Positions 1,818 through 46,027 of a stretch of DNA of 46,027 bases are shown piece after piece. Position 1 is the stretch's first letter. Every line of letters starts with the position of its first letter. A program made the translations under genes and the position numbers. The stretch comes from Candidatus Kerfeldbacteria bacterium (lineage in GTDB: Bacteria > Patescibacteriota > Patescibacteriia > JACPL01). Below the pieces are notes generated by a model. That model ran no database searches and had not been told where the DNA came from. It worked only from the letters and a program-made list of their open reading frames with translations. The stretch is from assembly GCA_016182525.1 (NCBI GenBank), contig JACPGL010000005.1, forward strand, positions 1-46,027. Reading direction: 5' to 3'.

Positions 1818-2048
1818 TGTGGGAAAGATGTGAATAGAGGGAGGGAAAGAGTGGGGAAATATTCATAAGGTGTGTATAAAAAAAAGAAAAAAATATATCT
1901 TCCACAATTCATCCCGAACCCTCTCTCTTCTTATCCCCTTCTCCACCTAATATTTTTCCGTTGTATTCCTTAAGAATACATCTTCTCACGAACACTTATC
2001 CCCTTATCCCCAGTCTCTATTATTACTCCTAGTTTATTATAGATATTT
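1818..2048. other. Putative replication origin oriC
   Basis: AT-rich dnaA-dnaN spacer with DnaA boxes TGTGTATAA (1871-1879), TGTGAATAG (1829-1837), TCTTCCACA (1898-1906), TTATCCCCT/TTATCCCCA (1996-2012). Confidence 0.75.
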
Positions 2049-3155: not shown

Positions 3156-3321
3156 AAAAATACACAGGCGTTTTCCAAACCGGGCTCCAAAACAGTGAAA
3201 AATGGAGCCTGTTTTGTTCACGAAAATGACGCGGCGCCCGTTTGCCTTTTTGCTTCGCAAAAAGTTTTCCGGCCGCTATTTTCGTTCCAAAACATACGCC
3301 TGTGTATTTTTTTATTTCTTA
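3146..3321. mobile_element. MITE-like element with 26-bp perfect terminal inverted repeats between convergent genes
   Basis: TAAGAAATAAAAAAATACACAGGCGT (3146-3171) is the exact reverse complement of 3296-3321; interior duplicated at 1-87. Confidence 0.6.
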
Positions 3322-8599: not shown

Positions 8600-8672
8600 G
8601 CCCTCGTAGCTCAGTTGGAAGAGCGAGGCACTCCTAACGCCTAGGTCCCCTGTTCGACTCAGGGCGAGGGCA
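8600..8672 (+). tRNA. tRNA-Arg(CCT)
   Basis: Acceptor GCCCTCG/CGAGGGC, anticodon loop CTCCTAA, GTTCGAC T-loop. Confidence 0.9.
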
Positions 8673-8765
8673 CGAGCGGTAATGAAATTGGCTAAGATGA
8701 GAGAAAGTTTATTCAGCGCCGATTAAATAATGATGATTACAACACGGATAGATCGACATGTCAAA

Positions 8766-8801
8766 TGTTCTACGTGCCTGCCTACCGGTAGGCAGGGAAC
8801 A
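8766..8801. promoter_or_regulatory. parS-like site interrupted by a 20-bp palindrome
   Basis: TGTTCTACGTG + [CCTGCCTACCGGTAGGCAGG] + GAACA. Confidence 0.65.
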
Positions 8802-8823
8802 TTTAGGAATAACACTATGAGCT

Positions 8824-9189
8824 ATGACGCTTTCTGAAGCCCAAGGGGCAGTTCTAGAGTTTGCAAAGAAAAATGGGTGGGAAGACTACCCCAATATAGA
8901 CAAATTTGACCACATTCACGAAGAACTGCTTGAAATGAGCCAGTTCTTGCGGTATAAGTCCCGCGAAGAGCGTGAAAAGTTTGTTTCTGAGCACCAAGAA
9001 CTTTTCGAGAAGGAGCTTGGAGACGTGCTTTTCGGGCTGTTACGGCTCGCAAATCAGCTCGGAGTGGATGCAGAAAGGGGATTCCTAGCCGCAAAAGCGA
9101 AAATCGAGAAGAAATATACTTCTGGAGTAGCTGAAAACAAGACTATACATCAAAGCTCGGGAGATTCGCAGTTCGGGTCGCCAAGCTAA
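8824..9189 (+). CDS. MazG-like nucleotide pyrophosphohydrolase
   Basis: EELLEM...EKELGDVLF..L.LAN.LGVD motif. Confidence 0.8.
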   Translation: MTLSEAQGAVLEFAKKNGWEDYPNIDKFDHIHEELLEMSQFLRYKSREEREKFVSEHQELFEKELGDVLFGLLRLANQLGVDAERGFLAAKAKIEKKYTSGVAENKTIHQSSGDSQFGSPS

Positions 9190-9190
9190 A

Positions 9191-9206
9191 TGTTCCACGT
9201 GGAACA
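9191..9206. promoter_or_regulatory. parS centromere-like site
   Basis: TGTTCCACGTGGAACA perfect palindrome, ~7 kb from oriC. Confidence 0.85.
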
Positions 9207-9270
9207 TTGACGAGAAGCGGATTTTGTGTCGTGATATACATATTACAACACAGATCTAATGTTCACGCAA

Positions 9271-9286
9271 TGTTCCACGTGGAACA
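9271..9286. promoter_or_regulatory. parS centromere-like site
   Basis: Second TGTTCCACGTGGAACA, 80 bp from the first. Confidence 0.85.
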
Positions 9287-9333
9287 TTCGTTCCCAAGAC
9301 CTGCGAGCCCAAAAGTTATCACTTCGGAGTATA

Positions 9334-9532
9334 TGAGGAACTACCAGCCAGAATACCTTCTCGAACCACGCCCTCCGTTCGGGGAAAATTTTCGTCGTTC
9401 ACTTCGGGGAACCCTCGAAATTCGCTCGCTGATTACAGCTCGCTGCTTTCGTCTCCCTCTCGTTCACTCGTCCATTTGCAAGCCCTCACTACGGGAAGTG
9501 GTTCTCGAAAGTATTCCGGCTGTCGTTCCACA
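9334..9532 (-). ncRNA. Candidate structured RNA (long imperfect hairpin)
   Basis: 9334-9378 pairs with 9491-9532; several plus-strand A.C mismatches become G.U pairs on the minus strand. Confidence 0.3.
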
Positions 9533-9650
9533 TCTTCTCAAGAGACAAGATCACGACGGGTGGCAGCGGGAAAGCGGTCACACCGAGCGTAGCTGCACGA
9601 AGTGCGTGGAGCGAGGTGTGACAGGGTGCCCGCTGACAGGACCCGTGACC
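9531..9650. repeat. Bipartite structured element, copy 1 (copy 2 at 29491-29655)
   Basis: GATCACGACGGGTGGCAG (9549-9566) and GACAGGACCCG (9635-9645) are identical in both copies. Confidence 0.75.
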
Positions 9651-9741
9651 ACTGCAATTGAGACAGAGGAGGCCGGCCGATGCGGCTCGGAGTAGCAGCC
9701 TTGTTGGCAATTGAGGCGGTATGCAGAGTCTATGGGAATAT

Positions 9742-9814
9742 GGGCCAATAGCTCAGTTGGTAGAGCGCAGCATTCGCATTGCTGAGGTCAGGGGTTCGAC
9801 TCCCCTTTGGTCCA
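9742..9814 (+). tRNA. tRNA-Ala(CGC)
   Basis: G3.U70 acceptor, anticodon loop TTCGCAT, GGTTCGAC. Confidence 0.95.
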
Positions 9815-9828
9815 CCGATGTTCCAGTA

Positions 9829-9847
9829 CCTGCCTGCCGGTAGGTAG
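9829..9847. repeat. Degenerate CCTGCCT(A/G)CCGG palindrome
   Basis: CCTGCCTGCCGGTAGGTAG, same family as 8777-8796 and 37492-37511. Confidence 0.7.
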
Positions 9848-9925
9848 AGAGCATTGCAGGAAATGTATATTTGTGTTCTAGTAAACATACTAGGACATAA
9901 AATACATAGAAAGTCAAATACTTAA

Positions 9926-9948
9926 TGTCCAAAGCTAAGCTTTGGCCA
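9926..9948. repeat. TGTCCAAAGCTAAGCTTTGG palindrome
   Basis: Family copies at 15113, 25093 and 27166. Confidence 0.8.
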
Positions 9949-9953
9949 CTCTC

Positions 9954-10027
9954 GGGTCTGTAGCTCAGTTGGTTAGAGCGCACGATTCACATTCGTGAGG
10001 TCAGAGGTTCAACTCCTCTCAGGCCCA
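9954..10027 (+). tRNA. tRNA-Val(CAC)
   Basis: Anticodon arm CACGA-TTCACAT-TCGTG, GGTTCAAC. Confidence 0.95.
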
Positions 10028-10102
10028 CTCGAAAGTTGATGGATTATAGGATTTATGTTGTAATATAGATTTAGCTTTCCTCATCCATACTTTGTCAATA
10101 TA

Positions 10103-10155
10103 CTATCCACATCTTGCTCCTCTTTATCCACAGCATATCCAGATTCTTGTCCACT
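10103..10155 (+). promoter_or_regulatory. DnaA-box cluster outside oriC
   Basis: CTATCCACA (10103), perfect TTATCCACA (10124-10132), ATATCCAGA, TTGTCCACT, all in the same orientation. Confidence 0.6.
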
Positions 10156-10212
10156 TGCTATACTTAAGGATGTTTTAAGGTCATGTTCACCAGTGAGAGG
10201 AGGTGATTCGGA

Positions 10213-10842
10213 ATGACAACAATTGAAACATGGGGGGAGCTCCTTGTGGGTTCTTTCCAAGATCTGTGGCTCCGTTTTATCAGCTTGTTGCCGGAACTTT
10301 TAGCAGCGCTCATCGTTTTCATTGCTGGGTGGCTCATTGCAATGGCCATTGAGCGTGTGGTTGTGCTCATTGTGGAAAAGCTGTGGATTGAAAAACTTGC
10401 TGAACGGGTGAAGTTGAATGAATTACTCGTGTTTCTCCTTGCCGCGTCAGACATCCTTGGTCTTTCAGAGGTGACGCAGTTTTTGAACCGTGTGTTGCTC
10501 TACGTACCGAACGTTGTCGTGGCTGTGCTCATCCTCCTGCTCGGTATTATTTTCGGTCGGTTTGCCGAGCGCGTGGTGCATGGGAGTTTGCAAGCGGCGA
10601 AGTTTGCATCAGCCGGCATGCTCGCTGGTCTTGCAAAATGGATGATCACGGTGTTTGCGATTCTTGCCGCGCTGATCCAACTCAAAATTGCCGAGACCAT
10701 GCTGAACACGCTCTTTACCGGATTTGTGGCCATGATTGCGCTTGCCGGAGGTTTGGCATTTGGACTTGGGGGCAGGGAAGAGGCGCAGCGCGCGCTTCAA
10801 CAACTCAAGAGTGATATTAGTCGTCGGCATGGGCCGATGTAA
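10213..10842 (+). CDS. Small-conductance mechanosensitive-channel-like TM-helix repeat protein
   Basis: LPELLAALIVFIAGW and YVPNVVVAVLILLLG repeats, GLAFGLGGREEA; SD GGAGGTGA upstream. Confidence 0.8.
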   Translation: MTTIETWGELLVGSFQDLWLRFISLLPELLAALIVFIAGWLIAMAIERVVVLIVEKLWIEKLAERVKLNELLVFLLAASDILGLSEVTQFLNRVLLYVPNVVVAVLILLLGIIFGRFAERVVHGSLQAAKFASAGMLAGLAKWMITVFAILAALIQLKIAETMLNTLFTGFVAMIALAGGLAFGLGGREEAQRALQQLKSDISRRHGPM

Positions 10843-10854
10843 AGCGTCTCAAAA

Positions 10855-10894
10855 AAGATCCGTCTCGTGGTCGACCAGGCGGATCTTGTGTTTT
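10855..10894 (+). terminator. Putative intrinsic terminator
   Basis: AAGATCCGTCT...AGGCGGATCTT stem followed by GTGTTTT. Confidence 0.5.
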
Positions 10895-10930
10895 CTAAAG
10901 GTTTTTGCTAGTCTGAATCAGAAATAACCG

Positions 10931-11110
10931 TCGCAAAAATTTGGTGCGCAGGGAGCGGAGCGACCGAGCACGAATTTTTGCGAAGAGCGGGACACGAACG
11001 GAAACTGGAGTCTCGCACCATAGATTTCTCGACAGCAGTTCGACAAGCTCACTGTGACATTGCTCGGAATGACATGGTGCGAGACGGAAGTTGCAGTTCG
11101 TGATCACGCG
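10931..11110. repeat. Nested palindromic repeat complex
   Basis: TCGCAAAAATT/AATTTTTGCGA hairpin; GTCTCGCACCAT/ATGGTGCGAGAC stem enclosing TTCGACAAGCTCACTGTGAC and CTCGGAATGAC REP-like pieces. Confidence 0.65.
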
Positions 11111-11111
11111 A

Positions 11112-11187
11112 GGGCCCTTAGCTCATTTGGTAGAGCGCGTCCATGGCATGGACGAGGCGACCGGTTCGATCCCGGTAGGGTCCACCA
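11112..11187 (+). tRNA. tRNA-Ala(GGC)
   Basis: G3.U70, anticodon loop ATGGCAT, encoded CCA. Confidence 0.95.
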
Positions 11188-13227: not shown

Positions 13228-13309
13228 TCGCCGAAATTCCTTGTTGGGCAAATGGCGCGCCTAACAGGAGTTTATGAAGCCTGACAGCAGGCTTCGTGGA
13301 GGCCATTCT

Positions 13310-13759
13310 ATGGCCAGTATCAGAAGGTTCTTCGCGGCCGCCGTTCTGGGTCTCGCTTCCGTCGTCCTTTCCGGCCGGGTCGCCGACGCGTTCGTCGGCA
13401 CCGACCAGTTCGCCGTCGAGGGCGACGCGACGGTGACCTTCACCTTCGGCATGTATTTGAAGTGGCAGCCGAGTGAGTCGAGGTTCCTCTGCACCATCTT
13501 CTGGCCGGACGCCACGCAGGACGTGTTCGTCAAGGTCAAGGAGGAGCAGTTGGACATGCTCATTCACGACGCCACCACCGGAGGTGGAACGCTGTTCAAC
13601 GGCACGTGGTTCCCTCTCGTCGACGATGGCGCCTACGAGATCTCGGTGCGCGTGGACTACGAGTCTGGGAAGCCGGTGAACACGGAGCTCGTCGCCCTCA
13701 CGGACGTGAGCGACCAGTTCACTGAGAACCCGATCGTCAGCCCGAGGAAAAGGTTCTGA
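13310..13759 (+). CDS. GC-rich secreted hypothetical protein
   Basis: SD GGAGG (13298-13302); signal peptide MASIRRFFAAAVLGLASVVLSGRVADA; strongly GC3-biased codons; hairpin 13765-13813 after stop. Confidence 0.75.
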   Translation: MASIRRFFAAAVLGLASVVLSGRVADAFVGTDQFAVEGDATVTFTFGMYLKWQPSESRFLCTIFWPDATQDVFVKVKEEQLDMLIHDATTGGGTLFNGTWFPLVDDGAYEISVRVDYESGKPVNTELVALTDVSDQFTENPIVSPRKRF

Positions 13760-21344: not shown

Positions 21345-21504
21345 GGAAAAGAGAAATACTCCTTTCACGCGGCACCAGAATCGCTCGCCTCCTGCGGGCG
21401 AGCGTTCTTTTCCCTCGGCAATTTCGCCTCAGCTCTTCGAGCTTCGGACCAAGCCGAAATTGCCTGCGGGACATGCCGCTTAGAAAGGAGTATTTCTCTT
21501 TTCC
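21345..21504. repeat. IR-bounded scaffold element
   Basis: 22-bp perfect IR GGAAAAGAGAAATACTCCTTTC (21345-21366 / 21483-21504). Confidence 0.8.
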
Positions 21505-22904
21505 TGTCCTGATAGGATCCGATTCTATCCTTTTGTTTTTCAAAGAATAGTGGTGCCACGAGTAATGCCGCGAATGTCCAGAAAAACAGCAAGTACATGT
21601 TTGTTTGAAAGTATGTGCCGAACGCCGTGATCGTGAGCATCGTGATTAAGAATGCCACCACGCCGATCATGGCAGGTTTCATGTCTTGCGGAATGACGGC
21701 ATAGGCGTGTCGTCCTTCTCGAGCAAGGCTTACAAGCATCATCCCGAACGCGAGCAATCCTACCACACCCATCTGCACCGCAAGTTCAGCATAGGTATTA
21801 TGAAGCTCTCGAATTTTTTGTTCGCCAGTCCAGTCTGACACGTCCACATCGATCGATCGGCCAAATCCCACACCGGCGATCGGATTTTGCACGAAGGCAC
21901 GCATGCCCTCTTTGAAAATAACCGCGCGAAATTCCGTGCTTGAATCTTCAATGCGCGTGGGGTTCAGAATCGCAATGCGTTCAAGAAGAGGGCGACTCGC
22001 AGCTTCGATCTTGGAAAAATTGTTGAGAAAGAGAATCGATCCCGCAATGGCGAGCATCACAACACTGCTCGCGAGTACTCCCGTTTTGAGGAAGAGTCCA
22101 AGGAGTCGTACACGCTGCTCTCGTGCCACCACACCAAAGGTCAGAATTGTTGCAATGGCAAATCCGAGCCAGAGATTTCGGAACAGCCCAACGAGAATAC
22201 CGAGCGACCCGATCGTAAAGAGCGGAACAGCCCATTGGCCAAGGGCGGCGATTCGTCGATCTCGGTGTGCGTACAGATTCATGAACAGGATCAGACCGGT
22301 GAGAACGAAAAAGCTGTGCGGCGCGCTAAGCATGCGCGTGCCTTCGGTTGAAAGCGGTGTCATATCCACCCACACACCTTTGCCAGTCGCGACTCCATAG
22401 GCGATGAAGGGGATGAGCGTGATGCCACCAAGAAGAAAAGTGGTGATCACGCGCTTCCATGCTTCACGTGTTCGGACAAGTGTCAACACAATGAAAAAGA
22501 TCACTGGATAAAACGCTGCGTTTTTGAATGGTGATGGAAATAGATACAGGGAACTGCAACGAGCGGATGCGCGCATGGGCAAGTGCGCTTGCTCCGGTGA
22601 GCGCGAGCGTGATGTCGAAGAGAAAGAGTTTGACTTGATGATCGCCGAACATGATTGGCTGAAGCGCAAAGAGGTGTTCGAACGTCATCGTTGCAAGGAT
22701 GAGGATGTGTAGGCCGGATTCCGGAGTTCGAATGATCGGGATGGCAAGGAGGAGTGTGGCAACAAGGAAGAGTGGAGGCGTAAGGCCGGTGACCAGCGAG
22801 AGGCCGAGGATGAGCGCAATTCCAAAATACCCGAGAAGCGTGCTTTCAAAAATGTCTCGTGCAGGCGTGGGTTGTATTTGGACTTGAGAATATGTTGACT
22901 TCAT
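21365..22904 (-). pseudogene. O-antigen ligase/polymerase (Wzy_C) family membrane protein, frameshifted
   Basis: N-part in ORF 22464-22904, C-part in ORF 21365-22669 (R..W, NPIAGVGFG, LHNTYAELAVQMGVVGL); frame switch near 22525-22550. Confidence 0.75.
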
Positions 22905-22910
22905 ACATAG

Positions 22911-23011
22911 GTCATTGCGAGGTCGCGCTTTCGCGACCGAAGCAATCTAGCTAAGGGATTTTTGTCGGCAGATCCGTTCTCGTCTACTGACGAGAACGGA
23001 TCTCGTCCGAC
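22911..23011. repeat. GTCATTGCGAG half-element plus GATCCGTTCTCGTC palindrome at the island edge
   Basis: 22911-22948 and 22964-23011 match families seen at 20894, 25209 and 29558. Confidence 0.8.
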
Positions 23012-23018
23012 GGGGTGA

Positions 23019-23098
23019 GCACTCCAGAATGCGTGAAACGTTCACGCGCTCTGGGGTATGCCGGTACGTATGTATCGCTCATTGTCGTACCGGCCCCC
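23019..23098 (-). terminator. Conserved double-hairpin 3' module
   Basis: GCCGGTACG..CGTACCGGC-ATA-CCCCAGAG..TTCTGGAG; 17 bp identical to 25331-25347. Confidence 0.55.
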
Positions 23099-23116
23099 TA
23101 TCCATCCATCTCTGTT

Positions 23117-24151
23117 TCAGAACGGCCATCCGGCGTATGAGACGCCGGCCCAGCCCGTGAGCGGGCTGTAATCCGCGACACCGGTCGGCGTCGCGGATTC
23201 CCAGGGGCCGAGTGCGCCCCCGATCGTCATGCGCAGGCCGCCGACCAGGCGCACTTGCGCTTCGGCGAGTCCGTAGACACCGGGCGCTTGCGCCCGGTTC
23301 GGGTGGTCGACGCTTCCGCCGACCTCGCGCTGCCAGCGGCCCCACTTCCACGTGCCGACCCCGACGCCGACTGAGACGCGGCCAGCAAAGACGCGGCCAG
23401 CAAGCCCGTCGACTGCCCAAGACGTGAAGTCCCGAGAGCCGACGCTGATGCGTGGCGCTTCAACGAACCACGAGTCAGCCTGCCACCGAAGGCCAGCGAG
23501 GCCCTCCGGAATGGCGACTGATCCGCTTGGCCGCGTCAGCTCTCCGAAGCGGGCTTGGCCTCCGATGATGAGAGAGATGGGCGCCTGGCCCGGGTCTCCC
23601 TTTTCACCGCGAGCACCGCGCTCGCCACGCTCGCCCTTGTCCCCACGGTCGCCTTTGGAGCCGCGCTCGGGGGTCGGGCGGGTGCGGCGGAGGTAGGGCT
23701 CGAACTCGATCCCGCGTCCCTCCGGGCCGGCTGGCCCGTACATTTCGCCGCCGATGCGCGCGTCGTAGCCAAAATCAAGCAGGGCGTCGCGGCCGGCCTT
23801 GGCACGCTCGGTCGTGAGGTTCGGATCCCTCACATCCGAGCGCTCGACGCCCCGGCTTGCCCAGCCGTGCACCGTCCAGTACGCGACGGTGTCGAGTTTG
23901 ACCTCGGCTGTCGCCTCCCGGAAAGCGTCCTGAATCTCGCCGATGCTCGGCACCTTGTTGAGCCGAGCCGAGATCCAGACCTTGCCGGGCAGGTCGGGTG
24001 TGGTCACGAGCGCCGCGGGAGTGGTTGCAGATGGCTCGTCGCCGAGCCGCGCCTGCAGCCGGTCGAACGCATCGCTCTGCGCCGCGGCAGGTGCCGCGAG
24101 CGCAAGGAGAGACATGACGGTCGCAATGACCGTCGTGAGCAGGTGACGCAT
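23117..24151 (-). CDS. GC-rich secreted protein: OmpA-like segment, collagen-like GXY repeat, barrel-like C-terminus
   Basis: Signal peptide ending APAAAQ; VHGWASRG..NLTTERAKAGRDAL..FG; GSKGDRGDKGERGERGARGEKGDPG; ends GVSYAGWPF; SD GAAAGG. Confidence 0.7.
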   Translation of the reverse strand: MRHLLTTVIATVMSLLALAAPAAAQSDAFDRLQARLGDEPSATTPAALVTTPDLPGKVWISARLNKVPSIGEIQDAFREATAEVKLDTVAYWTVHGWASRGVERSDVRDPNLTTERAKAGRDALLDFGYDARIGGEMYGPAGPEGRGIEFEPYLRRTRPTPERGSKGDRGDKGERGERGARGEKGDPGQAPISLIIGGQARFGELTRPSGSVAIPEGLAGLRWQADSWFVEAPRISVGSRDFTSWAVDGLAGRVFAGRVSVGVGVGTWKWGRWQREVGGSVDHPNRAQAPGVYGLAEAQVRLVGGLRMTIGGALGPWESATPTGVADYSPLTGWAGVSYAGWPF

Positions 24152-24262
24152 GGGATGCGCCCTTTCTGCCGCCCCCGAAAGGGCGACGGTTCGAGTCTGA
24201 ATTCTGTTCTGAATGAGCGTCCACACCACAGGGGAGTGATGTGGATTCCGAGAGGCGTGAGT

Positions 24263-24335
24263 TGTCATCCTGAACCAAGCGAAGCGAGGTGAAGGATCTC
24301 CTCAAGAGATCCTTCGGCTCCGCCTCAGGATGACA
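24263..24335. repeat. GTCATCCTGA...TCAGGATGAC palindrome
   Basis: Same family as 17015-17098 and 20999-21058. Confidence 0.85.
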
Positions 24336-24469
24336 GAATCTCATACTCCTTGGAATCCCCCCAACCCCCACGAGCGCGTCACCGAAGTGACTGCGCCCGC
24401 GAGGATTAGGGTTGCCGCGCTTCTCGTGTGCCCAAGAAGGGCACGACACACGTGGCGACGGATTATCCG

Positions 24470-25078
24470 TCAGTTGTTGCAGGCGAACGGGCTGGCGCCC
24501 GCGCCTTCGTCGCAGATCTGGTAGTCCCATCCTCCGACGCCGTTCGGCGCCGTCTCAACGTACGGGTACCACTTGGCGCTGTGCTCCTGAATCAGCGACC
24601 AGACGATCCCGAACGCGTCCTCGGCGTGCGGATTCAGCCGCACGAACGGCTTGGAGGTGGGCGGGTAGGGGACGAGCACGCCACCGGGGGTCTTGGCCCC
24701 GTAGTACCCGACCCCGTCGGTCTTGGACGGGTTCGTCCAGTTGCCCCGATCGTACGTCCCGCCGCCGTCGAAGGAGCCGATGTCCATGAACCAGGCCCCG
24801 CGGGAGGTCATCACGAGGCCATCGTACCAGTCGAGCATGGGCCCAACGTCCCCCCACTTCCGCTCCGGAGGGTCGATGATGGTACGCGGGAGGAGCAGGC
24901 TGGGACCATCGGGATCTCCCAGGAACGGGAAGGCCTGCTCTGCCCAGTCCGGCGGGTTCTTCCAGAAGTCGACCCACTCCTGACTTCCGGGGTCGCCAGG
25001 GATCGTGTACTGTGCCGCGGCAGGTGCCGCGAGCGCGAGAGACATGGCCGCGAGCGCGGCGCGGGCGAACGTGCGCAT
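24470..25078 (-). CDS. GC-rich secreted hypothetical protein (Trp/Pro/Gly-rich)
   Basis: SD GGAGG; signal peptide MRTFARAALAAMSLALAAPAAAQ; GC3-biased codons. Confidence 0.75.
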   Translation of the reverse strand: MRTFARAALAAMSLALAAPAAAQYTIPGDPGSQEWVDFWKNPPDWAEQAFPFLGDPDGPSLLLPRTIIDPPERKWGDVGPMLDWYDGLVMTSRGAWFMDIGSFDGGGTYDRGNWTNPSKTDGVGYYGAKTPGGVLVPYPPTSKPFVRLNPHAEDAFGIVWSLIQEHSAKWYPYVETAPNGVGGWDYQICDEGAGASPFACNN

Positions 25079-25092
25079 GGGGTCCTCCAACC

Positions 25093-25117
25093 TGTCCAAA
25101 GCTTGAGCCTTTGGACA
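25093..25117. repeat. TGTCCAAAG..CTTTGGACA palindrome variant adjacent to the RBS
   Basis: TGTCCAAAGCTTGAGCCTTTGGACA. Confidence 0.75.
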
Positions 25118-25208
25118 TTTTGCGCGGTTGTTTTCGATGAGAAGGATTCCCATCCCAGACAAGACGAGCCGCTCATCTTTTCTGGGACGGGGGTCGCGGG
25201 TGACGGGA

Positions 25209-25276
25209 GTCATTGCGAGCGAAGCGAAGCAATCTCATAAGATCGTCACGTCGGCCTTCGGCCTCCTCGCAATGAC
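25209..25276. repeat. GTCATTGCGAG...CTCGCAATGAC palindrome
   Basis: 11-bp terminal arms with an inner GCGAAGCGAAGCAATC motif. Confidence 0.85.
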
Positions 25277-25298
25277 ACAACGCCACTACTGCTTCTCT

Positions 25299-25367
25299 CA
25301 CCCCACAGAACACGAGAGATTCATGTGCTGTGGGGTATGCCGGTACGAATTCGCGCACCGGCTCCCC
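25299..25367 (-). terminator. Conserved double-hairpin 3' module
   Basis: GCCGGTGCG..CGTACCGGC-ATA-CCCCACAG..CTGTGGGG. Confidence 0.55.
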
Positions 25368-25413
25368 TCCTACCCTCCTTTCCTTGAATGCCCCCCCTCT
25401 CTCGCGGTGTGCC

Positions 25414-27117
25414 CTAGCGCACGCCGATGTTCAGCCGGATGGTGCCTTCCGGCTCGAACGAGTTGATTCCCTGGTCAGGATCGAGCTGCCAGGTGCAGCT
25501 CCTTCCATCGCACCAGATGAGGAATCCCTCGGGCGGCGTACCGCCTTCCGGCACGTAGCTCCACACCCGCTGCTCGCAGGCCGGGGTGAAAAGGTCCCAC
25601 CCCTCCGGGATGTCGAGCACCCAGCGCCCGTTCATCTCCGTGGCCTGCGCCCAGTAGCCCCACTCGAAGCCGCGGGAGTCCTGGACGAAAGCCTCGGGAT
25701 AGCAGCCCTCCCACGAGACGACACGGCCGTCACGGCGGAGATCCTCCACCATCGGGCCGACGTTCGGCTGAAACACGATGTCCGGGCACCCGCCGTCGCA
25801 ATCGCCCGGCTCGGTCTCGCCTCCGTCCCTCCACAAATCGATCTGGTAGGCCTTGCCCATCCCAGGGTGCTCCACAATGGAAGCTCCCGCGGGGACGAAC
25901 GTTTCCCAAACGATGAGAGACCACACCAGCTCGATATCGGGTTCGCACCAGTAGGTGAGGTTGCACTGGGTGAGCGTGGAGTCCTCACCCGTGGGACGGG
26001 GGGCGAACATCTCGTTGCCGCGCTCCTGGAGCGGAACCGTGAGGACCTTCGCGGCCCAGCCCATCTCACCGAAGAACTGGACGTCCGTCCACGGTCCGCG
26101 CTCAAAGTACACTCCTTCCTCGGTGACGCGGGTCATCCGCGCCTGTTCGGTCGAGGTGGCCTCCATCCACGGCCCGTTCTGAGCAGGGTGCTCCGAATTG
26201 TACACGATCGGGCACCCGTCGAACGACTTGCGCATCCACGCCGTGATCCGGATCGCGGCATCGCCACTTGCGTGGCGCACGATCTTCGCTCCTGTCGGGA
26301 GCGGCGTGGAATCCACGAGCAGCGACCAGACACGCGACGTGTCGCTGTTGCAGTAGTAGCCCATGTTCAGGTCATGCAGGGCCGTATCGGTCGGTGCGGC
26401 CACGAAGCCGTTGGAACCAATCACCGCGTGCTCGACGCCCGCGGCAATCCCCCGCTCACCGAACCACCAGAGGTCGGTCCACGGAGTGTCCGTCGAGATC
26501 CAGATGCCGTCGTCGTCCACGCGGACGAGACTGCCCTGGATCGTCGAAGTCGCCCACCACTCCCCGCTCTCCGTATCGAACTTCACAGAGTTGGGAATGA
26601 TGTCGCAGCCGGCGAAGGGATCGTCATCCGGCGGTTCGGGCGTGCAGATCCACTGGTAGGCCCACTCCTTGGTCGTGGGATCCTGCCAGACAGTGAACCC
26701 CGTCAGACCCTCGGCGGACAGCGAGTCCACGTAGGACCAGACGGTCAGGTTGTCGTCGACGCACTTGACGTTGACGGTCGGTCGCTCGCAGGTGAGACCC
26801 ACGAACTCCGTGCCGTCGTCGAGGCGCGTACCCATCTCCGTGATCGCCGGGACGCTTCCGTCCGGGCTGAAGAATTCGGCCACCATGTAGGCGGTCGAGT
26901 CGTTCAGCTCCGGCACGAAGAGCTTCCCGTTGCGGATCTGGAGGAAGTCGACCTTGGGGCCGACCTTGCTGCCGTCCGGGGAGGTATGGATTACCTCCGG
27001 GCAGCTCGAACTCCTCGGCTCCGGGTAGTTGTCGGGGCCGGCTGGAGCTGCGGTATCTCCGCAGCCCGTCAGAGCGAACATGGCAGCCGCAATGGCTGCC
27101 GGGATCCAGTGACGCAT
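25414..27117 (-). CDS. GC-rich putative lipoprotein with four tandem Cys/Trp-rich domains
   Basis: SD GGAAAGGA; MRHWIPAAIAAAMFALTG-C lipobox; four C-x(3-6)-VWS motifs. Confidence 0.75.
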   Translation of the reverse strand: MRHWIPAAIAAAMFALTGCGDTAAPAGPDNYPEPRSSSCPEVIHTSPDGSKVGPKVDFLQIRNGKLFVPELNDSTAYMVAEFFSPDGSVPAITEMGTRLDDGTEFVGLTCERPTVNVKCVDDNLTVWSYVDSLSAEGLTGFTVWQDPTTKEWAYQWICTPEPPDDDPFAGCDIIPNSVKFDTESGEWWATSTIQGSLVRVDDDGIWISTDTPWTDLWWFGERGIAAGVEHAVIGSNGFVAAPTDTALHDLNMGYYCNSDTSRVWSLLVDSTPLPTGAKIVRHASGDAAIRITAWMRKSFDGCPIVYNSEHPAQNGPWMEATSTEQARMTRVTEEGVYFERGPWTDVQFFGEMGWAAKVLTVPLQERGNEMFAPRPTGEDSTLTQCNLTYWCEPDIELVWSLIVWETFVPAGASIVEHPGMGKAYQIDLWRDGGETEPGDCDGGCPDIVFQPNVGPMVEDLRRDGRVVSWEGCYPEAFVQDSRGFEWGYWAQATEMNGRWVLDIPEGWDLFTPACEQRVWSYVPEGGTPPEGFLIWCDGRSCTWQLDPDQGINSFEPEGTIRLNIGVR

Positions 27118-27165
27118 GACGTGCGTCCTTTCCAAAGTCGCCCACGAACAGGCAACAGTGAGCGG

Positions 27166-27190
27166 GTGTCCAAAGCTTAGCTTTGGACAC
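27166..27190. repeat. GTGTCCAAAGCTTAGCTTTGGACAC palindrome
   Basis: 12-bp perfect arms; lies just downstream of a minus-strand TTGACA (27205-27210). Confidence 0.85.
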
Positions 27191-27316
27191 AGGAAGAAAT
27201 ACATTGTCAAGCAGCGACCCGCGAGATGCGAGTCACTACAGCGATTCGAAGAACGGTTTAGAAGTCCCGTCCTCGGAACAATCGAGAAGCCCTTCTCAAC
27301 TGTTCTGAAGATGGCT

Positions 27317-27994
27317 TTATTTTTGAAACACCAGACACACATTCCCCATCCATCGAGAGAATCCTAAACGATTGATCACTCGGTCATACGCTCGACTGAT
27401 CCACGACAGCACTAGGAACTTATATAAATACCCTTCCGTAAATGAGAAGCGCTGAACATCGATGCATCGTAAACCCGCGTTTTCAAAAACCTGAATGAGA
27501 TGGGTACTATCCGTATAGGTGTACTGTGTCTCGTGTGCTTCTTCATGTTCCTCATGTCCGCGGATCCACTGGTGAAATGTCAACGGTGTGTATTTGGCAA
27601 GACGAAATTCCGGTGCTGTCGGATTCGGGAGCGAGGCGATAAAAATTCCACAGGGCTTGAGGACACGGTGAATCTCGCGTGCTGAACCGTCCAGATTTTT
27701 TATATGTTCAAGAACGTAGTTCGCAAACGCCAGATCATACCCATCCGACGCCACGGGTTTCATGTCTTCGATCGATGCAACGAAATATTGTCGCACGCTC
27801 GGGTGGCGTACCTCATGGCGGAACACATCGAGACGATCTTCGGTAAACGTGACACCGGTGCGGGTGAGATGATTTTCGATGGATACGCTTTTGCCCGCGC
27901 CAATGTTTAATAGAACACATGCACGTTGAGGCTCGTGAATGAGTGCTGCGCGAACAATCATCTGAATTAAATGCTTTTCAGCAGGGGTTTGCAT
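27317..27994 (-). CDS. Class I SAM-dependent methyltransferase
   Basis: LLNIGAG, YDLAFANYVLEHI, EIHRVLKPCG. Confidence 0.88.
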   Translation of the reverse strand: MQTPAEKHLIQMIVRAALIHEPQRACVLLNIGAGKSVSIENHLTRTGVTFTEDRLDVFRHEVRHPSVRQYFVASIEDMKPVASDGYDLAFANYVLEHIKNLDGSAREIHRVLKPCGIFIASLPNPTAPEFRLAKYTPLTFHQWIRGHEEHEEAHETQYTYTDSTHLIQVFENAGLRCIDVQRFSFTEGYLYKFLVLSWISRAYDRVINRLGFSRWMGNVCLVFQK

Positions 27995-28003
27995 ACAAGA
28001 AAT

Positions 28004-28969
28004 TTATTCAGTTCTCCCGTTTGCAGAATCCGTTCCAGCAACGCGCTGCTTCCACATCCATCGCGCTTCATCTTTGCGTCGTTTTGGCAACATGCGCACC
28101 AACGCCTCCATGGCTTTTTCTTGCGAGGTCATGTCAGGCGTTTCTTCCATCACTGGAGAAAACATCGGTGCAGGCGCATACGGCTCTGGCACATCTTCGT
28201 CATCATCCTTTGAAACATCTTCCACCACCTCATCTTGAACCGCGTCGTTATATTGTGGTTGTGGCTCGGCTTCATACGGTAACTCAACTGGCGCGGGGAC
28301 TGGCACAGGAGCAACAAACGGCCGCGACTCATCCTCCCGTTCACGCACGTCGCCACGACGAAATTCCGTTTGCGCGATAATCGCAAGCACAGCTACAAGC
28401 ACCGCGGCAAACGCTCCACCAAAAATATTCACCGGATAGTTCGGTCGCACCGGAAAGCGAGAAACAATGGGTCGGTCAATCGTGTACAACAACACCGACG
28501 CATTTCCACCAAGATACGATGCGCCTTCGTTTTCCAACACGTGAATCACCACGGTCATCACGCGTTGTGCGTCAACCGAACGTCGCGCATACACCGACAG
28601 ATGCAAAATGCCGGTATCGGGTTTCACCGAGCCGTCAATGGATTGCTCCCACGCTTCTCGAATTTCGCGTTCGGTGCCACTATAGAATGAGGCAATCGAC
28701 TGATCCTGCAGCACCACTTTATTATAGAAGGACATCGAGGGCAGCACAGAGGTGAGCGTGCCGGCGTACTTTTCGGCCGATCGTGACGCTTGGTAGCCGT
28801 CGCCCACTCCTCGTGGGATGATCAGAATCGAGGCTTCTGATCGGTACTCCAAAGGCTGAAAGAGACTCACAAGAAGCGCTAAAAGAACCCCGCCAAGAGC
28901 CGAGGCCACAAAAATGCCGCGTCGCTCGCGGAAAACATCACTATATGGGGGGTTTTCGGGAGTATTCAT
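28004..28969 (-). CDS. Wzz/CapA-like polysaccharide chain-length determinant
   Basis: TM-QPLEYRSEASILI, PVRPN + second TM, acidic Pro-rich tail; promoter TTGACA-17bp-TATAGT at 29040-29012. Confidence 0.75.
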   Translation of the reverse strand: MNTPENPPYSDVFRERRGIFVASALGGVLLALLVSLFQPLEYRSEASILIIPRGVGDGYQASRSAEKYAGTLTSVLPSMSFYNKVVLQDQSIASFYSGTEREIREAWEQSIDGSVKPDTGILHLSVYARRSVDAQRVMTVVIHVLENEGASYLGGNASVLLYTIDRPIVSRFPVRPNYPVNIFGGAFAAVLVAVLAIIAQTEFRRGDVREREDESRPFVAPVPVPAPVELPYEAEPQPQYNDAVQDEVVEDVSKDDDEDVPEPYAPAPMFSPVMEETPDMTSQEKAMEALVRMLPKRRKDEARWMWKQRVAGTDSANGRTE

Positions 28970-34964: not shown

Positions 34965-37472
34965 ATGGCACGACGACGAATTCTTCAACGAAAAGCAGGC
35001 AGCGCGGCTTCAGCACTCACGCTGAACGCGCCGATTGCTGCAGCGATCATCCCACAACCGATTGTCGAGGAAATGCAGTCGTCGTATTTGGATTATGCAA
35101 TGTCGGTGATTGTGTCTCGCGCGCTCCCTGATGTGCGTGATGGATTGAAGCCGGTGCATCGACGCATTTTGTATGCGATGTGGACACTTGGGTTAAAGCC
35201 AAATGCAAAGTTTCGTAAGTCGGCAACGGTAACAGGCGAGGTTCTTGGGAAATTTCATCCGCATGGTGATGTTGCGGTGTATGACTCACTTGTCCGCATG
35301 GCACAAGATTTCTCCATGCGCTACCCTTTGATTCATGGTCAGGGGAACTTCGGTTCAATGGATGGCGACGGCGCTGCGGCAATGAGGTATACGGAGTGTA
35401 AACTTTCCAAAATTTCGGAAAACTTACTCACGGATATTGAAAAAGAAACAGTCCTGTTTGTTCCAAATTATGATGGCTCACAAAAAGAGCCAACAGTTCT
35501 ACCCGCTATTCTCCCGAATTTATTATTGAATGGAACCGTTGGCATTGCCGTTGGAATGGCAACAAACATTCCGCCGCATAACCTCACTGAACTTGTCGAT
35601 GCAATCATGCATCTTGCCGATCATCCGCGCGCGAACGTGGAAGATCTCATGACATTCATCAAGGGGCCGGATTTCCCGACAGGCGGCGAGATTTACGATG
35701 CCGAAGAAATTCAGCGCGCCTATGCCACTGGCCGAGGCGCAATCGTGATCCGCGCCAAAACCGAAATTGTTGAAACGAAAAACGGCGACTTTCACATTAT
35801 TGTCACGGAAATTCCGTATCAAGTGAACAAAGCGCTTCTTGTCGAGAAGATTGCCGACCTTGTGCGCGAGAAAAAGATCGACGGCATTCGCGATCTGCGC
35901 GATGAATCCGACAAAGACGGCGTGCGTGTGGTCATCGAGCTCAAGAAAGGGAGCTACCCGCGTAAAATTTTGAACCGCTTGTTCACGCTCACCTCGCTCC
36001 AGACCACGTTCCATGTGAATTTGCTTGCGCTTGTGGACGGGATTCAACCCCGCGTGCTCACGCTCAAGATGATTTTAGAAGAATACTTAAAACACCGCAC
36101 GGATGTTGTGCGTAAACGCACGCAATATGATTTGACCAAAGCGGAAAATCGCGCGCATATTTTGGAGGGATTAAAAATCGCGCTCGTCAAAATTGACGCG
36201 GTGATTGACACGATCAAAAAATCCAAGGATAAAGATGTGGCACGTGAAAATTTGATGAAGAAATTCCGACTGTCGGAATTGCAAGCTATTGCGATCTTGG
36301 AAATGCGCTTGCAGCAACTCGCGAACTTGGAACGATTGAAAGTGCTGCAAGAATTGAAAGAAATGTTGGCGCTCATCGAAGAACTGAAAGGCGTTCTCAA
36401 ATCTCCGGCAAAAATTTTGGCGATCGTAAAAAAAGAACTTGGCGTGCTCAAAGAACAATTCGGCGACGAACGCCGCACGAAAGTGTTCCCCAATCCGGTT
36501 GGCAAGTTTACGCAAGAAGATCTGATCCCGAAAGAATCGACCATTCTCATGGTGACGCGCGACGGATACATCAAGCGCCAGCCGCCCGAAGCGTTTAAGA
36601 CCCAAGGCCGCGGCGGCAAAGGCGTGATTGGCCTCACGACCAAAGAAGAAGACATGGTGGAACACTTCTTCTCCCCGAACACGCACGCCGACATCTTGTT
36701 TTTTACGAGCAAAGGCCGCGTGTTCCAACTCAAAGCGTACGATATCCCTGTTGCGTCGCGCACGGCAAAAGGCCAAGCCCTTGTGAACTTCCTCCAGCTT
36801 GCACCGGAAGAGCGCGTGTCGGCAATCCTCTCGGCTGACGATCTTTCGAGCTACGAAGCGCTCATCATGGTCACCAAAAACGGACTCATCAAACGCGTGG
36901 AAGTGGAAAGCTTCCTCAACGTGCGCAAGTCCGGGTTGATTGCGATTAAACTTAAAGGCGACGATCGTCTGGAATGGATCAAGCCGTCCGAGGGCAAAGA
37001 CGAAGTGCTCTTGATATCGAAGAACGGACAAGCAATTCGCTTTAAGGAGAAAGACATTCGCGTCATGGGACGCGTTGCTACTGGAGTTCGCGGTATGCGT
37101 TTGAAAAACGGCGATGAAATTGTAGGCATGGATTTAGTCACGACCGATGTCCCGTTTGCGAGCCAGCAGGTTTTTGTTGTCATGTCCGAAGGTTTTGGAA
37201 AGCGAACCGGCCTAACGAACTATAAAGTGCAAAATCGGGGCGGGTCGGGCGTGAAAACGGCAAAAATAAGCAAGAAAACAGGAGCGATCATTGCCGGCTT
37301 TATCGTGGCGGATGGCCGAACCGAGCAAGATGTGCTTGTCATCTCGACCAAAGGCCAAGTGATTCGCTTGCCGCTCAAAAGCGTGTCGGTGCATGGCCGC
37401 GCAACGCAAGGCGTACGCCTCATGCGATTCAAAGAGTCGGAGGATCATGTGGCAAACGTGACGCTGCTGTGA
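34965..37472 (+). CDS. gyrA: DNA gyrase subunit A
   Basis: [21 protein letters not shown], GyrA-box QGRGGKG, beta-pinwheel repeats. Confidence 0.98.
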
Positions 37473-42878: not shown

Positions 42879-43214
42879 ATGCAGGCAAGTGTGCAGAACA
42901 GAAGTGATTCACTCTGGCACCGTGATCCTCTACTTGGAGGATCTGTCGTGACGGCCATGTGTTCGCTCGCGACATTCTTCGGCGCTCTCACCTGGGGGAC
43001 ATTCATAACCCCGGGACTTCGCGCCCAAGGAATAATGATAGGAACTATCTTCGCTATCATCGTTCTTCGGATGTGGGTCGCGTACTACGAAAGAGCCAAG
43101 GTGTGCTCTACAGAGGAAGGGGGGCGGGCGGGTGAGTTGCTTTTCAACTTCCTTATGACTGGTGGGGGGCTCGTCCTTGCCGTGGTGTTGGTGGGGTTCG
43201 GCAGTCAGGGATGA
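42879..43214 (+). CDS. Hypothetical 3-TM membrane protein (ORFan-like)
   Basis: SD GGAGG 6 nt before ATG; three hydrophobic helices. Confidence 0.6.
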   Translation: MQASVQNRSDSLWHRDPLLGGSVVTAMCSLATFFGALTWGTFITPGLRAQGIMIGTIFAIIVLRMWVAYYERAKVCSTEEGGRAGELLFNFLMTGGGLVLAVVLVGFGSQG

Positions 43215-43274
43215 GGGATACCAACGTGGTGAACCGTCGGCATAGGCAACCTATTGCCTAGAGAGGAGAATCTC

Positions 43275-43588
43275 ATGAGCAACCTCGTGAGCAGAGTTTG
43301 CCGCTCGGCTCGAGTCCGTGGAGTCGGGCAATCCGCCCTGGGATCGCCGTCGGACTTCTCATGGCGCTCCCCGTAGTTTTCGGAAACCTTGGTCTTGGAG
43401 GCGGGAGTCAGCTGTCGTGGCGTATCGTGTTATTGAGCTTCTGCACGGTTGTCTGCATTTCCGAGTACAGGAGAAGCGAAGCGCTCAAGGAGATGTACTG
43501 GCCGCACATCCGCCAAGGGACGGCCGCGATGTTCACCACATACGCGGTGGTTTCCATCGTGGCGATTGCCCTCATCGCTCGCTCCTAG
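43275..43588 (+). pseudogene. Hypothetical 3-TM membrane protein, apparent 1-nt frameshift after the ATG
   Basis: SD GAGGAG + ATG at 43275 is out of frame with ORF 43298-43588; adding one G gives MEQPREQSLPLG... Confidence 0.45.
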
Positions 43589-44896: not shown

Positions 44897-46027
44897 TCTT
44901 ACGAGAGTTTGATCCTAGCTCAGGATGAACGCTGGCGGCGTGTTTTAGGCATGCAAGTCGAGTGGTGCCGCAAGGTAACCACGGCAAACGGGTGAGTAAC
45001 ACGTGGACAACGTACCCCGAAGTGGAGCATAACCAGTCGAAAGATTGGATAATACTCCATGTGCTCGTTGAATTTTGTTCAACGCGCAAAGATTTATCGC
45101 TTCGGGAGCGGTCTGCGCCCCATCAGCTTGTTGGTAAGGTAACGGCTTACCAAGGCTCCGACGGGTACCGGGTGTGAGAGCACGACCCGGCTCACTGGGA
45201 CTGAGACACTGCCCAGACTCCTACGGGAGGCTGCAGTTAAGAATCTTCGGCAATGCGCGAAAGCGTGACCGAGCGACGCCGCGTGAAGGAAGAAGCCCTT
45301 CGGGGTGTAAACTTCTTTTCTCAGGGAAGAACTTTTGACTGTACCTGAGGAATAAGGGGCTGCTAACTCTGTGAACCTTTCAGTAGGTTGGTGCAGAGCT
45401 TCTCGAGTAATCGAGAATAGGAAAACTCAGCTTATATGCTGGAACATCGAACTTCGTCCGCTGAAGTCTTCTCTAAATATGGGAGGCGCGGAGTTCGACA
45501 ATCAGCAGGGAAGATTGATTCAACACTCTACCAAAGAAGATTATTCATATATAGATATATGAAAGCAATTTTGATTTGACGCGGCTGGGTATCGAAATGG
45601 TCCAAGATACTGCAAACGTGAACTTGTGGCCTTGGGTAGCCATTCGATATATCAGCGCAAATACCAGTGTAGTGAATAGATCCTGTTCACGCAGGGTAGT
45701 CTATACACTAGACTGGCGCGTCATCTTCTTTGGAAAAGCGTTGGGTCAATCCCCTCAGAGACTGATCCCTTTAAGGGTGAGATCGAAAGTGTCACGCAAG
45801 TGAAATTATACTTTTGATCAGACGCTGAGCTCCCGATTTTTTTCGGGATGATGATATAGTCCAAGGACTTCATGGAGAATGGAGTGGCCAGCAGCAGCGG
45901 TAATACAGAGGCCCCGAGCGTTATCCGGATTTATTGGGCGTAAAGAGTTCTAAGGCGGAACAGGAAGTCAACACGCAAATCTTGAGGCTCAACCTTAAGC
46001 TCCGTGTTGAAACTCCTGTTCTTGAGG
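44897..46027 (+). rRNA. rrs: 16S rRNA, 5' part, intron-containing, runs off the window
   Basis: AGAGTTTGATCCTAGCTCAG, ACTCCTACGGGAGGCTGCAG, GCCAGCAGCAGCGGTAATAC, ATTGGGCGTAAAG; 5' end approximate. Confidence 0.97.
45373..45886 (+). mobile_element. Group I self-splicing intron at 16S position 516 (E. coli numbering)
   Basis: 5' exon ends in U, intron ends in G; P TATGCTGGAA, Q AATCAGCAG, R TCAGAGACT, S GATGATATAGTCC; P3 CTCAGC/GCTGAG. Confidence 0.9.

Follow-up and report, generated by a model that had tools for sequence, protein, structure and literature searches.

We report that a GC-rich stretch of DNA with three genes for envelope-type proteins lies within a cell-surface glycan gene cluster of Candidatus Kerfeldbacteria bacterium, a member of Patescibacteria, also called the Candidate Phyla Radiation (CPR). 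The stretch is probably a recent, unameliorated block that was horizontally acquired from a high-GC, double-membraned donor using Shine–Dalgarno (SD) leaders. The window, namely the whole stretch of DNA analysed here, is the entire 46,027-base contig (C25) of a 1.04-Mb metagenome-assembled genome (MAG) in 63 contigs, which is estimated to be 79% complete and 3.96% contaminated. The island, as we call the GC-rich stretch, occupies positions 22905–27316 of the window and is filled by genes A, B and C (proteins P0001, P0002 and P0003), all on the minus strand and with their starts refined to the signal peptides. An excess of GC at synonymous sites, the SD leaders and the absence of the genes from relatives carry this reading; together, they allow horizontal transfer to explain the features that a preliminary description of this DNA had called host-style. 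Furthermore, gene A shares DNA modules with both gene B and gene C, which argues for a common source of the three.

Composition and contiguity of the island

The GC content of the island is 64.5% versus 50.6% and 51.3% in its two flanks. When the genome was divided into 1-kb windows (mean GC 0.51, sd 0.04), those with GC of at least 0.60 merged into 27 segments on 22 contigs, and the island is the longest of these segments in the 1.04-Mb genome. In terms of the GC content at third codon positions (GC3), genes A, B and C score 0.80, 0.88 and 0.85, respectively, whereas the genome has a median of 0.55, and its 95th percentile is 0.73. The island is enclosed by genes of native composition, namely a gene for an O-antigen ligase-like Wzy_C protein on the left (21365–22904, minus strand; Pfam Wzy_C, E 1.5e-15; GC3 0.55) and a methyltransferase gene on the right (27317–27994, minus strand; Pfam Methyltransf_11, E 4e-12; GC3 0.49). 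To either side, the neighbouring genes likewise read on the minus strand and code, according to Pfam, for the Wzy_C-like protein, methyltransferases, glycosyltransferases of family 4 (GT4) and a GHL15 protein with FG-GAP. The island was thus correctly described at the outset as three co-oriented orphan open reading frames (ORFs) within a glycan cluster, and the GC counts given then are exact (44 of 60 at 24001–24060 and 27 of 60 at 36301–36360, in gyrA). It was also right that no integrase or transposase is present in the island, on which the ORF list, Pfam and PHROGs agree.

The island is physically continuous with the chromosome on both sides, as was examined with Logan contigs of four groundwater runs (X1–X4), all belonging to one study; the assembly itself may derive from X1. 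The left junction is covered by a single contig in X1 and again in X2 (21500–24334, 2,960 bases), genes A and B are joined in an X3 contig (22951–25236), and the right junction is bridged in X1 (25209–28700), X2 (25390–27512) and X3 (26555–28385). Contig depth is even between the native and the GC-rich parts: 9.8/8.2/7.9 in X1, 14/12.4/14.7/12.1 in X2 and 6.1/6.9/5.3/5.2 in X3. The contigs break only at two repeat elements, where the summed depth rises to as much as 4504, and all four runs hold the island stretch; the island is fixed in the population across these four samples. A chimeric assembly, a doubt raised in the preliminary description, is therefore ruled out. A joint running from 24336 to 27166, seen in X1, X2 and X4, was considered as a deletion variant and rejected, since the identical 14 letters between repeat B and repeat C (described below) occur at about position 1908 of contig C9.

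No tRNA gene lies at the borders of the island; the nearest are at 8.6–11.2 kb of the window. A scan for promoters and terminators was uninformative, with no sigma-70-like site and two terminator-like sites found versus 1.1 and 3.3 expected from shuffled sequences. Rfam gave one sub-threshold match only (P17; 17.8 bits versus a gathering score of 45, E 0.31), which we treat as chance. As to the left neighbour, the Wzy_C-like gene consists of two overlapping ORFs in different frames (21365–22669 and 22464–22904), and the Logan contigs of X1, X2 and X3 have about 81 extra letters at 22526/7; the window may here contain the Wzy_C-like gene as a pseudogene, or in a variant or collapsed state.

The three genes and the elements between them

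Gene A (23117–24151, minus strand; 344 residues; GC 0.70, GC3 0.80) codes for a type-I-like signal peptide (MRHLLTTVIATVMSLLALAAPAAAQ), an N-terminal domain, eight collagen-like GXY triplets and a C-terminal domain that resembles an outer-membrane barrel. By eye, an SD-like GAAAGGG is found at −15 to −9. When residues 190–344 were submitted to the ESM Atlas, the feature score to the OMP_b-brl, OmpA_membrane and Opacity clusters was 0.95, and the predicted structure gave template-modelling (TM) scores of 0.68–0.79 by query with 133–150 residues aligned; in this model, the domain resembles an eight-stranded barrel. The C-terminus (...SYAGWPF) is conserved in the two homologues P0007 and P0008, all three proteins sharing a terminal G[WF]PF, so that the chain ends in an aromatic F, the usual signal for barrel insertion. 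Pfam, NCBIfam and PHROGs returned only sub-threshold collagen-like matches on the GXY stretch, and a sequence search of the PDB returned only collagen peptides. An OmpA_C-like peptidoglycan-binding motif at residues 96–130 was an impression by eye and is not claimed (hhalign versus OmpA, 0.6%, E 0.1).

Homologues of gene A are few. P0007 is 78% identical and conserved over the full length, and the distant P0008 (E 2.6e-28, covering 192–345) was retrieved when 1.84 billion representatives were searched exhaustively with a profile, the other matches being collagen-repeat noise. No member of the family was found in the 400 other Patescibacteria genomes sampled, 338 of which are of high quality.

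Gene B (24470–25078, minus strand; GC3 0.88) codes for a secreted orphan protein of 202 residues with a type-I-like signal peptide, and an SD-like GGAGG stands at −10 to −6 (by eye). No homologue was found outside its own cluster, and no family in Pfam, NCBIfam or PHROGs; the PDB sequence search gave a weak similarity to designed Kelch proteins, of which no stretch passes alone.

Gene C (25414–27117, minus strand; GC3 0.85) codes for a predicted lipoprotein of 567 residues, rich in Cys (16) and Trp (28), and is preceded by an SD-like AAGGA at −13 to −9 (by eye). Lipoboxes follow the consensus [LVI][ASTVI][GAS]C after the hydrophobic region of the signal peptide; that of gene C reads LTGC, in the stretch MRHWIPAAIAAAMFALTGC, and its Cys is invariant in the four homologues aligned. 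The AlphaFold model is confident (predicted local distance difference test (pLDDT) 74–87) only for about residues 40–158, and residues 38–164 are modelled as an immunoglobulin (Ig)-like beta-sandwich. A wide search with VIA-align returned generic sandwiches of the Ig, fibronectin type III and carbohydrate-binding-module kinds with Z of at most 5.9, where 7–8 is the guide for noise. The ESM Atlas gave nothing usable for the whole protein, Pfam, NCBIfam and PHROGs gave no family, and the C family has no PDB sequence match. Downstream of the sandwich, residues 170–295 and 301–429 form an internal tandem duplication (39% identical, E 2e-22). The duplicated unit is a Cys-bracketed domain of about 130 residues, and a degenerate third copy is possibly present near the C-terminus. 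Three homologues are known, at 47–63% identity, and the closest pair (P0003 and P0004, 63%) is conserved over the full length. The family is absent from the 40 nearest relatives and from the 400 other Patescibacteria. Homologues of A and C have, furthermore, GARP/FYMINK ratios of 1.5–2.9 versus a native median of 1.03, an amino-acid bias of the high-GC type.

Genes A and B share 23 identical nucleotides of signal-peptide DNA (24081–24103 and 25014–25036), or 36–39 nucleotides with one indel, and this stretch includes A/T-ending codons, which are rare in such genes. Genes A and C share a 3′ module: about 75 nucleotides can be aligned over the same two hairpins, with an identical core of 17 nucleotides that occurs without mismatch only twice in the genome. 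The pattern of this module had no match in the metagenome contigs. All three genes are followed by stable hairpins, that is, a double hairpin after gene A (23010–23116, minus strand; minimum free energy (MFE) −44 kcal/mol, z −4.5 versus shuffles), hairpins after gene B (24340–24469, minus strand; −72.7 kcal/mol, z −7.0) and a double hairpin after gene C (25280–25413, minus strand; −51.4 kcal/mol, z −3.3). The unit anatomy proposed earlier, with an SD-like motif, a signal peptide (A and B) or lipobox (C), 3′ hairpins and a repeat in every spacer, is thus borne out.

The four spacers of the island indeed each contain at least one repeat of genome-wide distribution, and these repeats fall into families A–D (to be distinguished from genes A–C). 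At the left edge, a copy of repeat A (GTCATTGCGAG – hairpin – CGAAGCAATC) lies at 22912–22948, its seeds occurring 46 and 62 times in the genome, followed by a repeat D palindrome of the GAGAACGGATC type at 22964–23013 (six other blastn matches and 65 seed matches in the genome). Between genes B and A, a copy of repeat B forms an inverted pair (GTCATCCTGAG – hairpin – CGAAGGATC; 24264–24336, seed found 78 times). A variant of repeat C (TGTCCAAAGC..GCCTTTGGACA) lies at 25093–25117, in the leader of gene B just 5′ of GGAGG. Between genes C and B, repeat A forms an inverted pair at 25209–25277 (seeds at 25211, 25225 and 25266), where the summed metagenome depth is 336–4504 versus 5–15 alongside; the Logan contigs break at this pair and at the repeat B copy. 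Finally, the right edge has a repeat C palindrome (TGTCCAAAGCTTAGCTTTGGACA; 27165–27191), which falls within the gene C leader (20 other matches, 60 seeds). Repeat C as a family comprises the palindrome TGTCCAAAGCTWAGCTTTGGACA and the variant TGGCAAAAGC, and repeats A and B have conserved ends with a variable inner hairpin. Another copy of repeat C is found immediately 5′ of tRNA-Val in the tRNA cluster at 8600–11187 of the window; this cluster holds Arg-CCT, Ala-CGC, Val-CAC and Ala-GGC, all four of which read G- or C-ending codons.

Seeds of the four families match at 356 places genome-wide, 65 of them inside gene calls. Of 537 native spacers, 98 contain repeats, as do 21 of the 77 spacers that border high-GC3 genes (p = 0.07; p = 0.31 for spacers of at least 150 nucleotides). 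With no specificity for the spacers of GC-rich genes, the repeats belong to the genome as a whole and are not a hallmark of the foreign genes. Given a summed depth of up to 4504, repeats A and B must be common to many members of the community. Repeats C and D, in contrast, are not over-represented in metagenome depth, and their presence in the island argues for its residence in this chromosome.

GC-rich genes and Shine–Dalgarno use across the genome

Genes with GC3 of at least 0.72 number 48 among the 828 gene calls; the calls, the start sites and the signal-peptide calls were all made with our own procedures. An SD core (GGAG or GAGG) is found at −19 to −4 in 22 of 46 high-GC3 genes versus 8, 6 and 3 of 46 in three upstream windows; starts of genes B and C were mis-set by the heuristic, and both count as SD-less in this tally. 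For the native genes, the core is found in 63 of 704 versus 53, 56 and 63 of 704 in control windows, and among the 278 native genes with unambiguous ATG starts, 36 have it versus 43 in the control. Since the core is position-specific only in the high-GC3 set, the GC-rich genes use SD and the native genes do not. Upstream of native genes the DNA is rich in A and T, and 61% of the 278 unambiguous starts have T at −1; initiation at native genes looks SD-independent, in the manner known for Bacteroidota. Native starts without SD enrichment can be seen, for example, at 29671, 30655 and 34965 of the window.

The ribosome of this bacterium is nonetheless likely to be able to pair with SD, as judged from relatives, its own 16S 3′ end being outside the assembly. 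In a relative of the same order (G002) and two relatives of the same class, the 16S rRNA ends in GGATCACCTCCTTTCT, and G002 retains the CCUCC anti-SD; another relative has TATCTCC. Loss of the anti-SD is reported in PMC9297842 for a subgroup of Parcubacteria lacking uL1, and the present genome has uL1 and hence does not belong to that subgroup as described there.

The placement in CPR, on which much of the above depends, is reasonable. For GyrA, encoded on the same contig as the island, the closest matches (57–69% identity) are MAGs labelled Patescibacteria, Saccharibacteria, Gracilibacteria and Peregrinibacteria, with two of the top matches labelled Gammaproteobacteria. The 40 nearest genomes are 0.7–1.3 Mb in size, and the source genome is the sole member of its family. 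The 5′ part of the 16S rRNA gene (44905–46021) runs off the contig end, with only model positions 9–641 assembled; model positions 9–546 extend over 1,022 bases, from which an insertion of about 480 bases follows. Also consistent with CPR is the lack of a match to Omp85. In G002, the 16S is likewise found in separated pieces.

The machinery for protein export is present and native. Lgt (C39:7698–8402, 156 bits), LspA (C41:2273–2659, 82.5 bits), signal peptidase I (S26, 141 bits) and SecY (184 bits) have GC3 of 0.50–0.59. Omp85 was not found in this genome, which is 79% complete, and in none of the 401 Patescibacteria genomes did a match exceed the cut-off. The general lack of outer-membrane biogenesis in CPR, stated in the preliminary description, thus holds here with regard to Omp85, but lgt and lspA, which were to be looked for as well, are both there. 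With no beta-barrel assembly machinery (BAM), the barrel of gene A has no known insertion route in the CPR cell.

What the GC-rich genes have in common appears to be composition. Among 30 of the 42 high-GC3 members outside the window that were scanned, seven had Pfam matches with E of at most 0.001 (six above the curated cut-off) and 23 had none. The families above the cut-off are a large serine recombinase (C5:116–1537), malate synthase at a contig end (C26:8–1483), a FadB-like enoyl-CoA hydratase/3-hydroxyacyl-CoA dehydrogenase (C3:13448–15463), aminotransferase IV (C28:12465–13631), a radical SAM/BATS protein (C59:4691–5590) and a beta-helix. The four metabolic proteins, from malate synthase to the radical SAM protein, are unusual cargo for CPR and are candidates for naming the donor. 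Signal-peptide-like N-termini are weakly enriched, in 21 of 48 high-GC3 genes versus 219 of 780 others (p = 0.03), by a crude heuristic that flags 28% of native genes. Among the 48 proteins there are just three paralogue pairs, none with A, B or C, so that we rejected a family of paralogues. Given the mixed functions, the weak export enrichment and the three pairs, we regard the high-GC3 set as a compositional class and not as a gene family or system. The classification by GC3, SD and signal peptide accordingly upholds the earlier idea of a distinct, foreign-looking gene class, but not that of a class aimed at a host, inasmuch as it is functionally mixed and the cell has its own export machinery.

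Tandem pairs of GC-rich paralogues stand at C3:23904–25967 (33% identical) and C18:3044–4424 (27%). In the former, ARTIDVPGD comes directly after the signal peptides. A beta-helix (NosD-like) domain is present in one member of this pair, and a further copy of that member, with 36% identity and GC3 below 0.72, is found at C47:18150–20777. Within the window, similar units had been proposed at two places. At 12.7–13.8 kb, a unit in the style of the island is indeed present (13274–13759, plus strand; GC3 0.85), namely a secreted orphan of 161 residues with a signal peptide, no Pfam family, GGAGG before an inner ATG and two 3′ hairpins (fold z −4.3). At 42.9–43.6 kb, the match is weak: two small membrane-protein ORFs (42879–43588, plus strand) have GC3 of 0.61 and 0.74, with GGAGG or AGGAG before their starts. 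The window also contains an ORF of 1,647 residues with native composition (3319–8262, minus strand; GC3 0.52).

Origin of the island and likeness to known systems

With acquisition as a single block, the genes for the OmpA/OmpX-like barrel protein with its collagen-like spacer, the small secreted protein and the Cys/Trp-rich lipoprotein would have come from a donor that was perhaps the host or a neighbour of the CPR cell. The block would have been inserted co-directionally into the cell-surface glycan gene cluster, its composition would not yet have drifted toward that of the recipient, and the short palindromic repeats of the recipient would later have taken up the island spacers. The genes may be transcribed by read-through from the glycan cluster, which runs in the same direction. 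Should they be expressed, B would be exported and C lipidated on the CPR surface by the Sec, signal peptidase I, Lgt and LspA of the CPR cell itself. The product of gene A would be exported as well, yet no BAM would be there to fold its barrel, and it may be a passenger or serve some other, unorthodox use.

Several points weigh against this reading. No donor was found: among billions of proteins, P0003 has three homologues, P0001 one close and one distant, and P0002 none, and a scan for the C family left no confirmed case among 71 pattern matches in genome contigs and 239 in metagenome contigs. No empty site can be shown either, the flanking genes being only 26–32% identical in two genomes of the same order, on separate short contigs. 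The island is also devoid of an integrase, a tRNA target and direct repeats, its sole repeats being the genome-wide palindromes; of these, repeats A and B are abundant in the metagenome and could have come with the donor DNA, only C and D looking genome-specific. The runs that attest contiguity are from a single study, X1 perhaps being the very source of the assembly. As for the nature of gene A, the barrel assignment rests on an ESM Atlas model with a whole-protein pLDDT of 0.60, and the AlphaFold model is poor (pLDDT 30.7). Pfam at E of at most 1 finds no barrel family but only Collagen, below the cut-off, and the hhalign probabilities for E. coli OmpA and OmpX are 0.6% and 0.2%. Because Pfam and hhalign do not confirm membership and the AlphaFold model is poor, we call gene A barrel-like and not a member of a barrel family.

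Alternatively, the three genes might have arrived separately, as small cassettes of leader, ORF and 3′ hairpins that were inserted at or beside native palindromic repeats acting as hot spots. The repeats do bracket every gene, GC-rich genes occur alone or as pairs, dispersed over 22 contigs, and repeats are present in 27% of the spacers bordering GC-rich genes versus 18% of native spacers. This enrichment is, however, not significant, no recombinase or attC-type core is found in any spacer, and the modules shared by A with B and with C are confined to these genes, in keeping with a single source block; we hence consider separate acquisitions unlikely. In this respect, the earlier view that the GC-rich genes do not form one transferred block is right for the genome, with its 27 segments, but probably not within the island, where the shared modules point to one source.

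We regard as highly improbable that the GC-rich, SD-led exported genes are envelope proteins derived from a host and kept for use at the site of contact with a diderm host. For example, the host BAM could insert A into the outer membrane of the host after its release to the host periplasm, with its collagen-like stalk as an anchor, while C and B, displayed on the surface of the CPR cell, would imitate host proteins. That the ORFs are intact and the homologues conserved, that BAM is lacking and that the genes lie in a surface-glycan cluster is compatible with such a use; none of our findings, nonetheless, positively supports a host-directed reading, and its chance is very small.

We see just as little prospect for the stronger form put forward in the preliminary description, namely a maintained gene class built for the ribosome and export machinery of a high-GC diderm host, whose DNA, transcripts or proteins would be delivered or which would mimic the host envelope. 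In its favour, SD-bearing high-GC genes contrast sharply with the SD-less native genes, and gene A looks BAM-dependent in a group where none of the genomes searched gave an Omp85 match over the cut-off. The ORFs are also intact, with the pairs P0001/P0007 and P0003/P0004 conserved over the full length. The class nevertheless includes cytoplasmic enzymes and a recombinase, has few paralogues and no shared module outside the island, and is only weakly enriched in exported proteins. The CPR cell has its own Sec, signal peptidase I, Lgt and LspA, and a same-order relative keeps the anti-SD. No delivery apparatus is linked to the island, and the genes are found in none of the 400 other Patescibacteria, hence no conserved CPR strategy is apparent. 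Plain transfer suffices, the host-style features being the expected residue of a recent transfer from such a donor.

There is only a slight chance that the island is the remnant of a prophage, plasmid or integrative element carrying envelope genes. A GC-rich large serine recombinase does exist elsewhere in the genome (C5:116–1537), and phage tail fibres contain collagen-like repeats of the sort seen in gene A; however, no phage, plasmid or integrase gene lies in or beside the island, the PHROG matches to gene A are limited to the low-complexity GXY stretch (residues 139–217), and the nearest tRNA genes are at 8.6–11.2 kb and none at the borders. Equally doubtful is an origin as native, fast-evolving surface genes with a composition that arose in place by amino-acid bias or biased gene conversion. 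The genes are within and co-oriented with the glycan cluster and are orphans, as CPR surface proteins often are, but their GC excess is at synonymous sites (GC3 0.80–0.88 versus 0.55), their SD use is unlike that of native genes, their homologues also show the high-GC-type composition, and no relative carries them. Least credible of all is an artefact of assembly or binning in which DNA of another organism was joined at shared repeats: contigs of all runs break at the very abundant repeats A and B and the MAG is fragmented with some estimated contamination, but both junctions lie inside single contigs, X3 joins A to B, depth is even between island and flanks in three samples, and the genome-specific-looking repeats C and D are inside the island.

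Taken as an acquired block, the island offers a clear example, with well-defined borders, of transfer without amelioration into an ultra-small CPR genome. Its foreign genes stand out on two independent counts, high synonymous GC and SD leaders in an otherwise SD-less genome. This double signature could serve to list recent acquisitions in CPR and perhaps to indicate hosts or neighbours as donors. An outer-membrane-barrel-like gene in a lineage without BAM is odd, and raises the question of whether it is expressed, tolerated or used at the host interface; our literature searches gave no account of outer-membrane-barrel genes in CPR, although supplementary gene lists may hold relevant cases.

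In comparison with known 8-stranded barrels (OMP_b-brl, PF13505; OmpA_membrane, PF01389; Opacity, PF02462), gene A is alike in its signal peptide and terminal F and, going by the ESM Atlas model, perhaps in its fold, and differs from OmpA in that its barrel is C-terminal instead of N-terminal, in its collagen-like triplets and in residing in a genome without Omp85. The island is also reminiscent of integron cassette arrays and of clusters of attC sites lacking integron-integrases (CALINs) in having co-oriented orphan ORFs, each followed by a structured palindrome, with no integrase nearby. Unlike cassettes, nonetheless, the genes each have their own leader and SD, and each palindrome is a gene-specific 3′ hairpin or else one of the genome-wide repeats, which are found at native genes too. 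The attC core consensus is RYYYAAC ... GTTRRRY, and we rejected an integron or CALIN because neither RYYYAAC nor GTTRRRY cores were found on either strand of the four spacers. Repeats A–D, furthermore, are similar to repetitive extragenic palindromic sequences (REP), bacterial interspersed mosaic elements (BIME) and miniature inverted-repeat transposable elements (MITE) in being 25–70 nucleotides long, palindromic, largely intergenic and present in tens of copies in a 1-Mb genome; repeats A and B differ in their conserved ends with a variable inner hairpin and in being common to many community members, and no transposase is linked.

The closest parallel is with the genomic islands of aquifer Patescibacteria, which, according to PMC12455944, number in the hundreds, amount to up to 13% of genome length and have donors including diderm phyla and non-CPR groundwater bacteria; transfers of single genes into these organisms are documented there as well. 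The kind of organism, the habitat, the atypical composition and the small genomes are alike. The present island differs in having no mobility gene or identifiable donor, and its cargo is three orphan envelope proteins, one of them outer-membrane-barrel-like. The contrast between SD and no SD in this genome does not appear in the accessible part of PMC12455944, whose supplements may list similar cases. Apart from that contrast and the barrel-like gene, therefore, the island is an ordinary genomic island of the kind known from these bacteria, for which delivery to a host need not be invoked.

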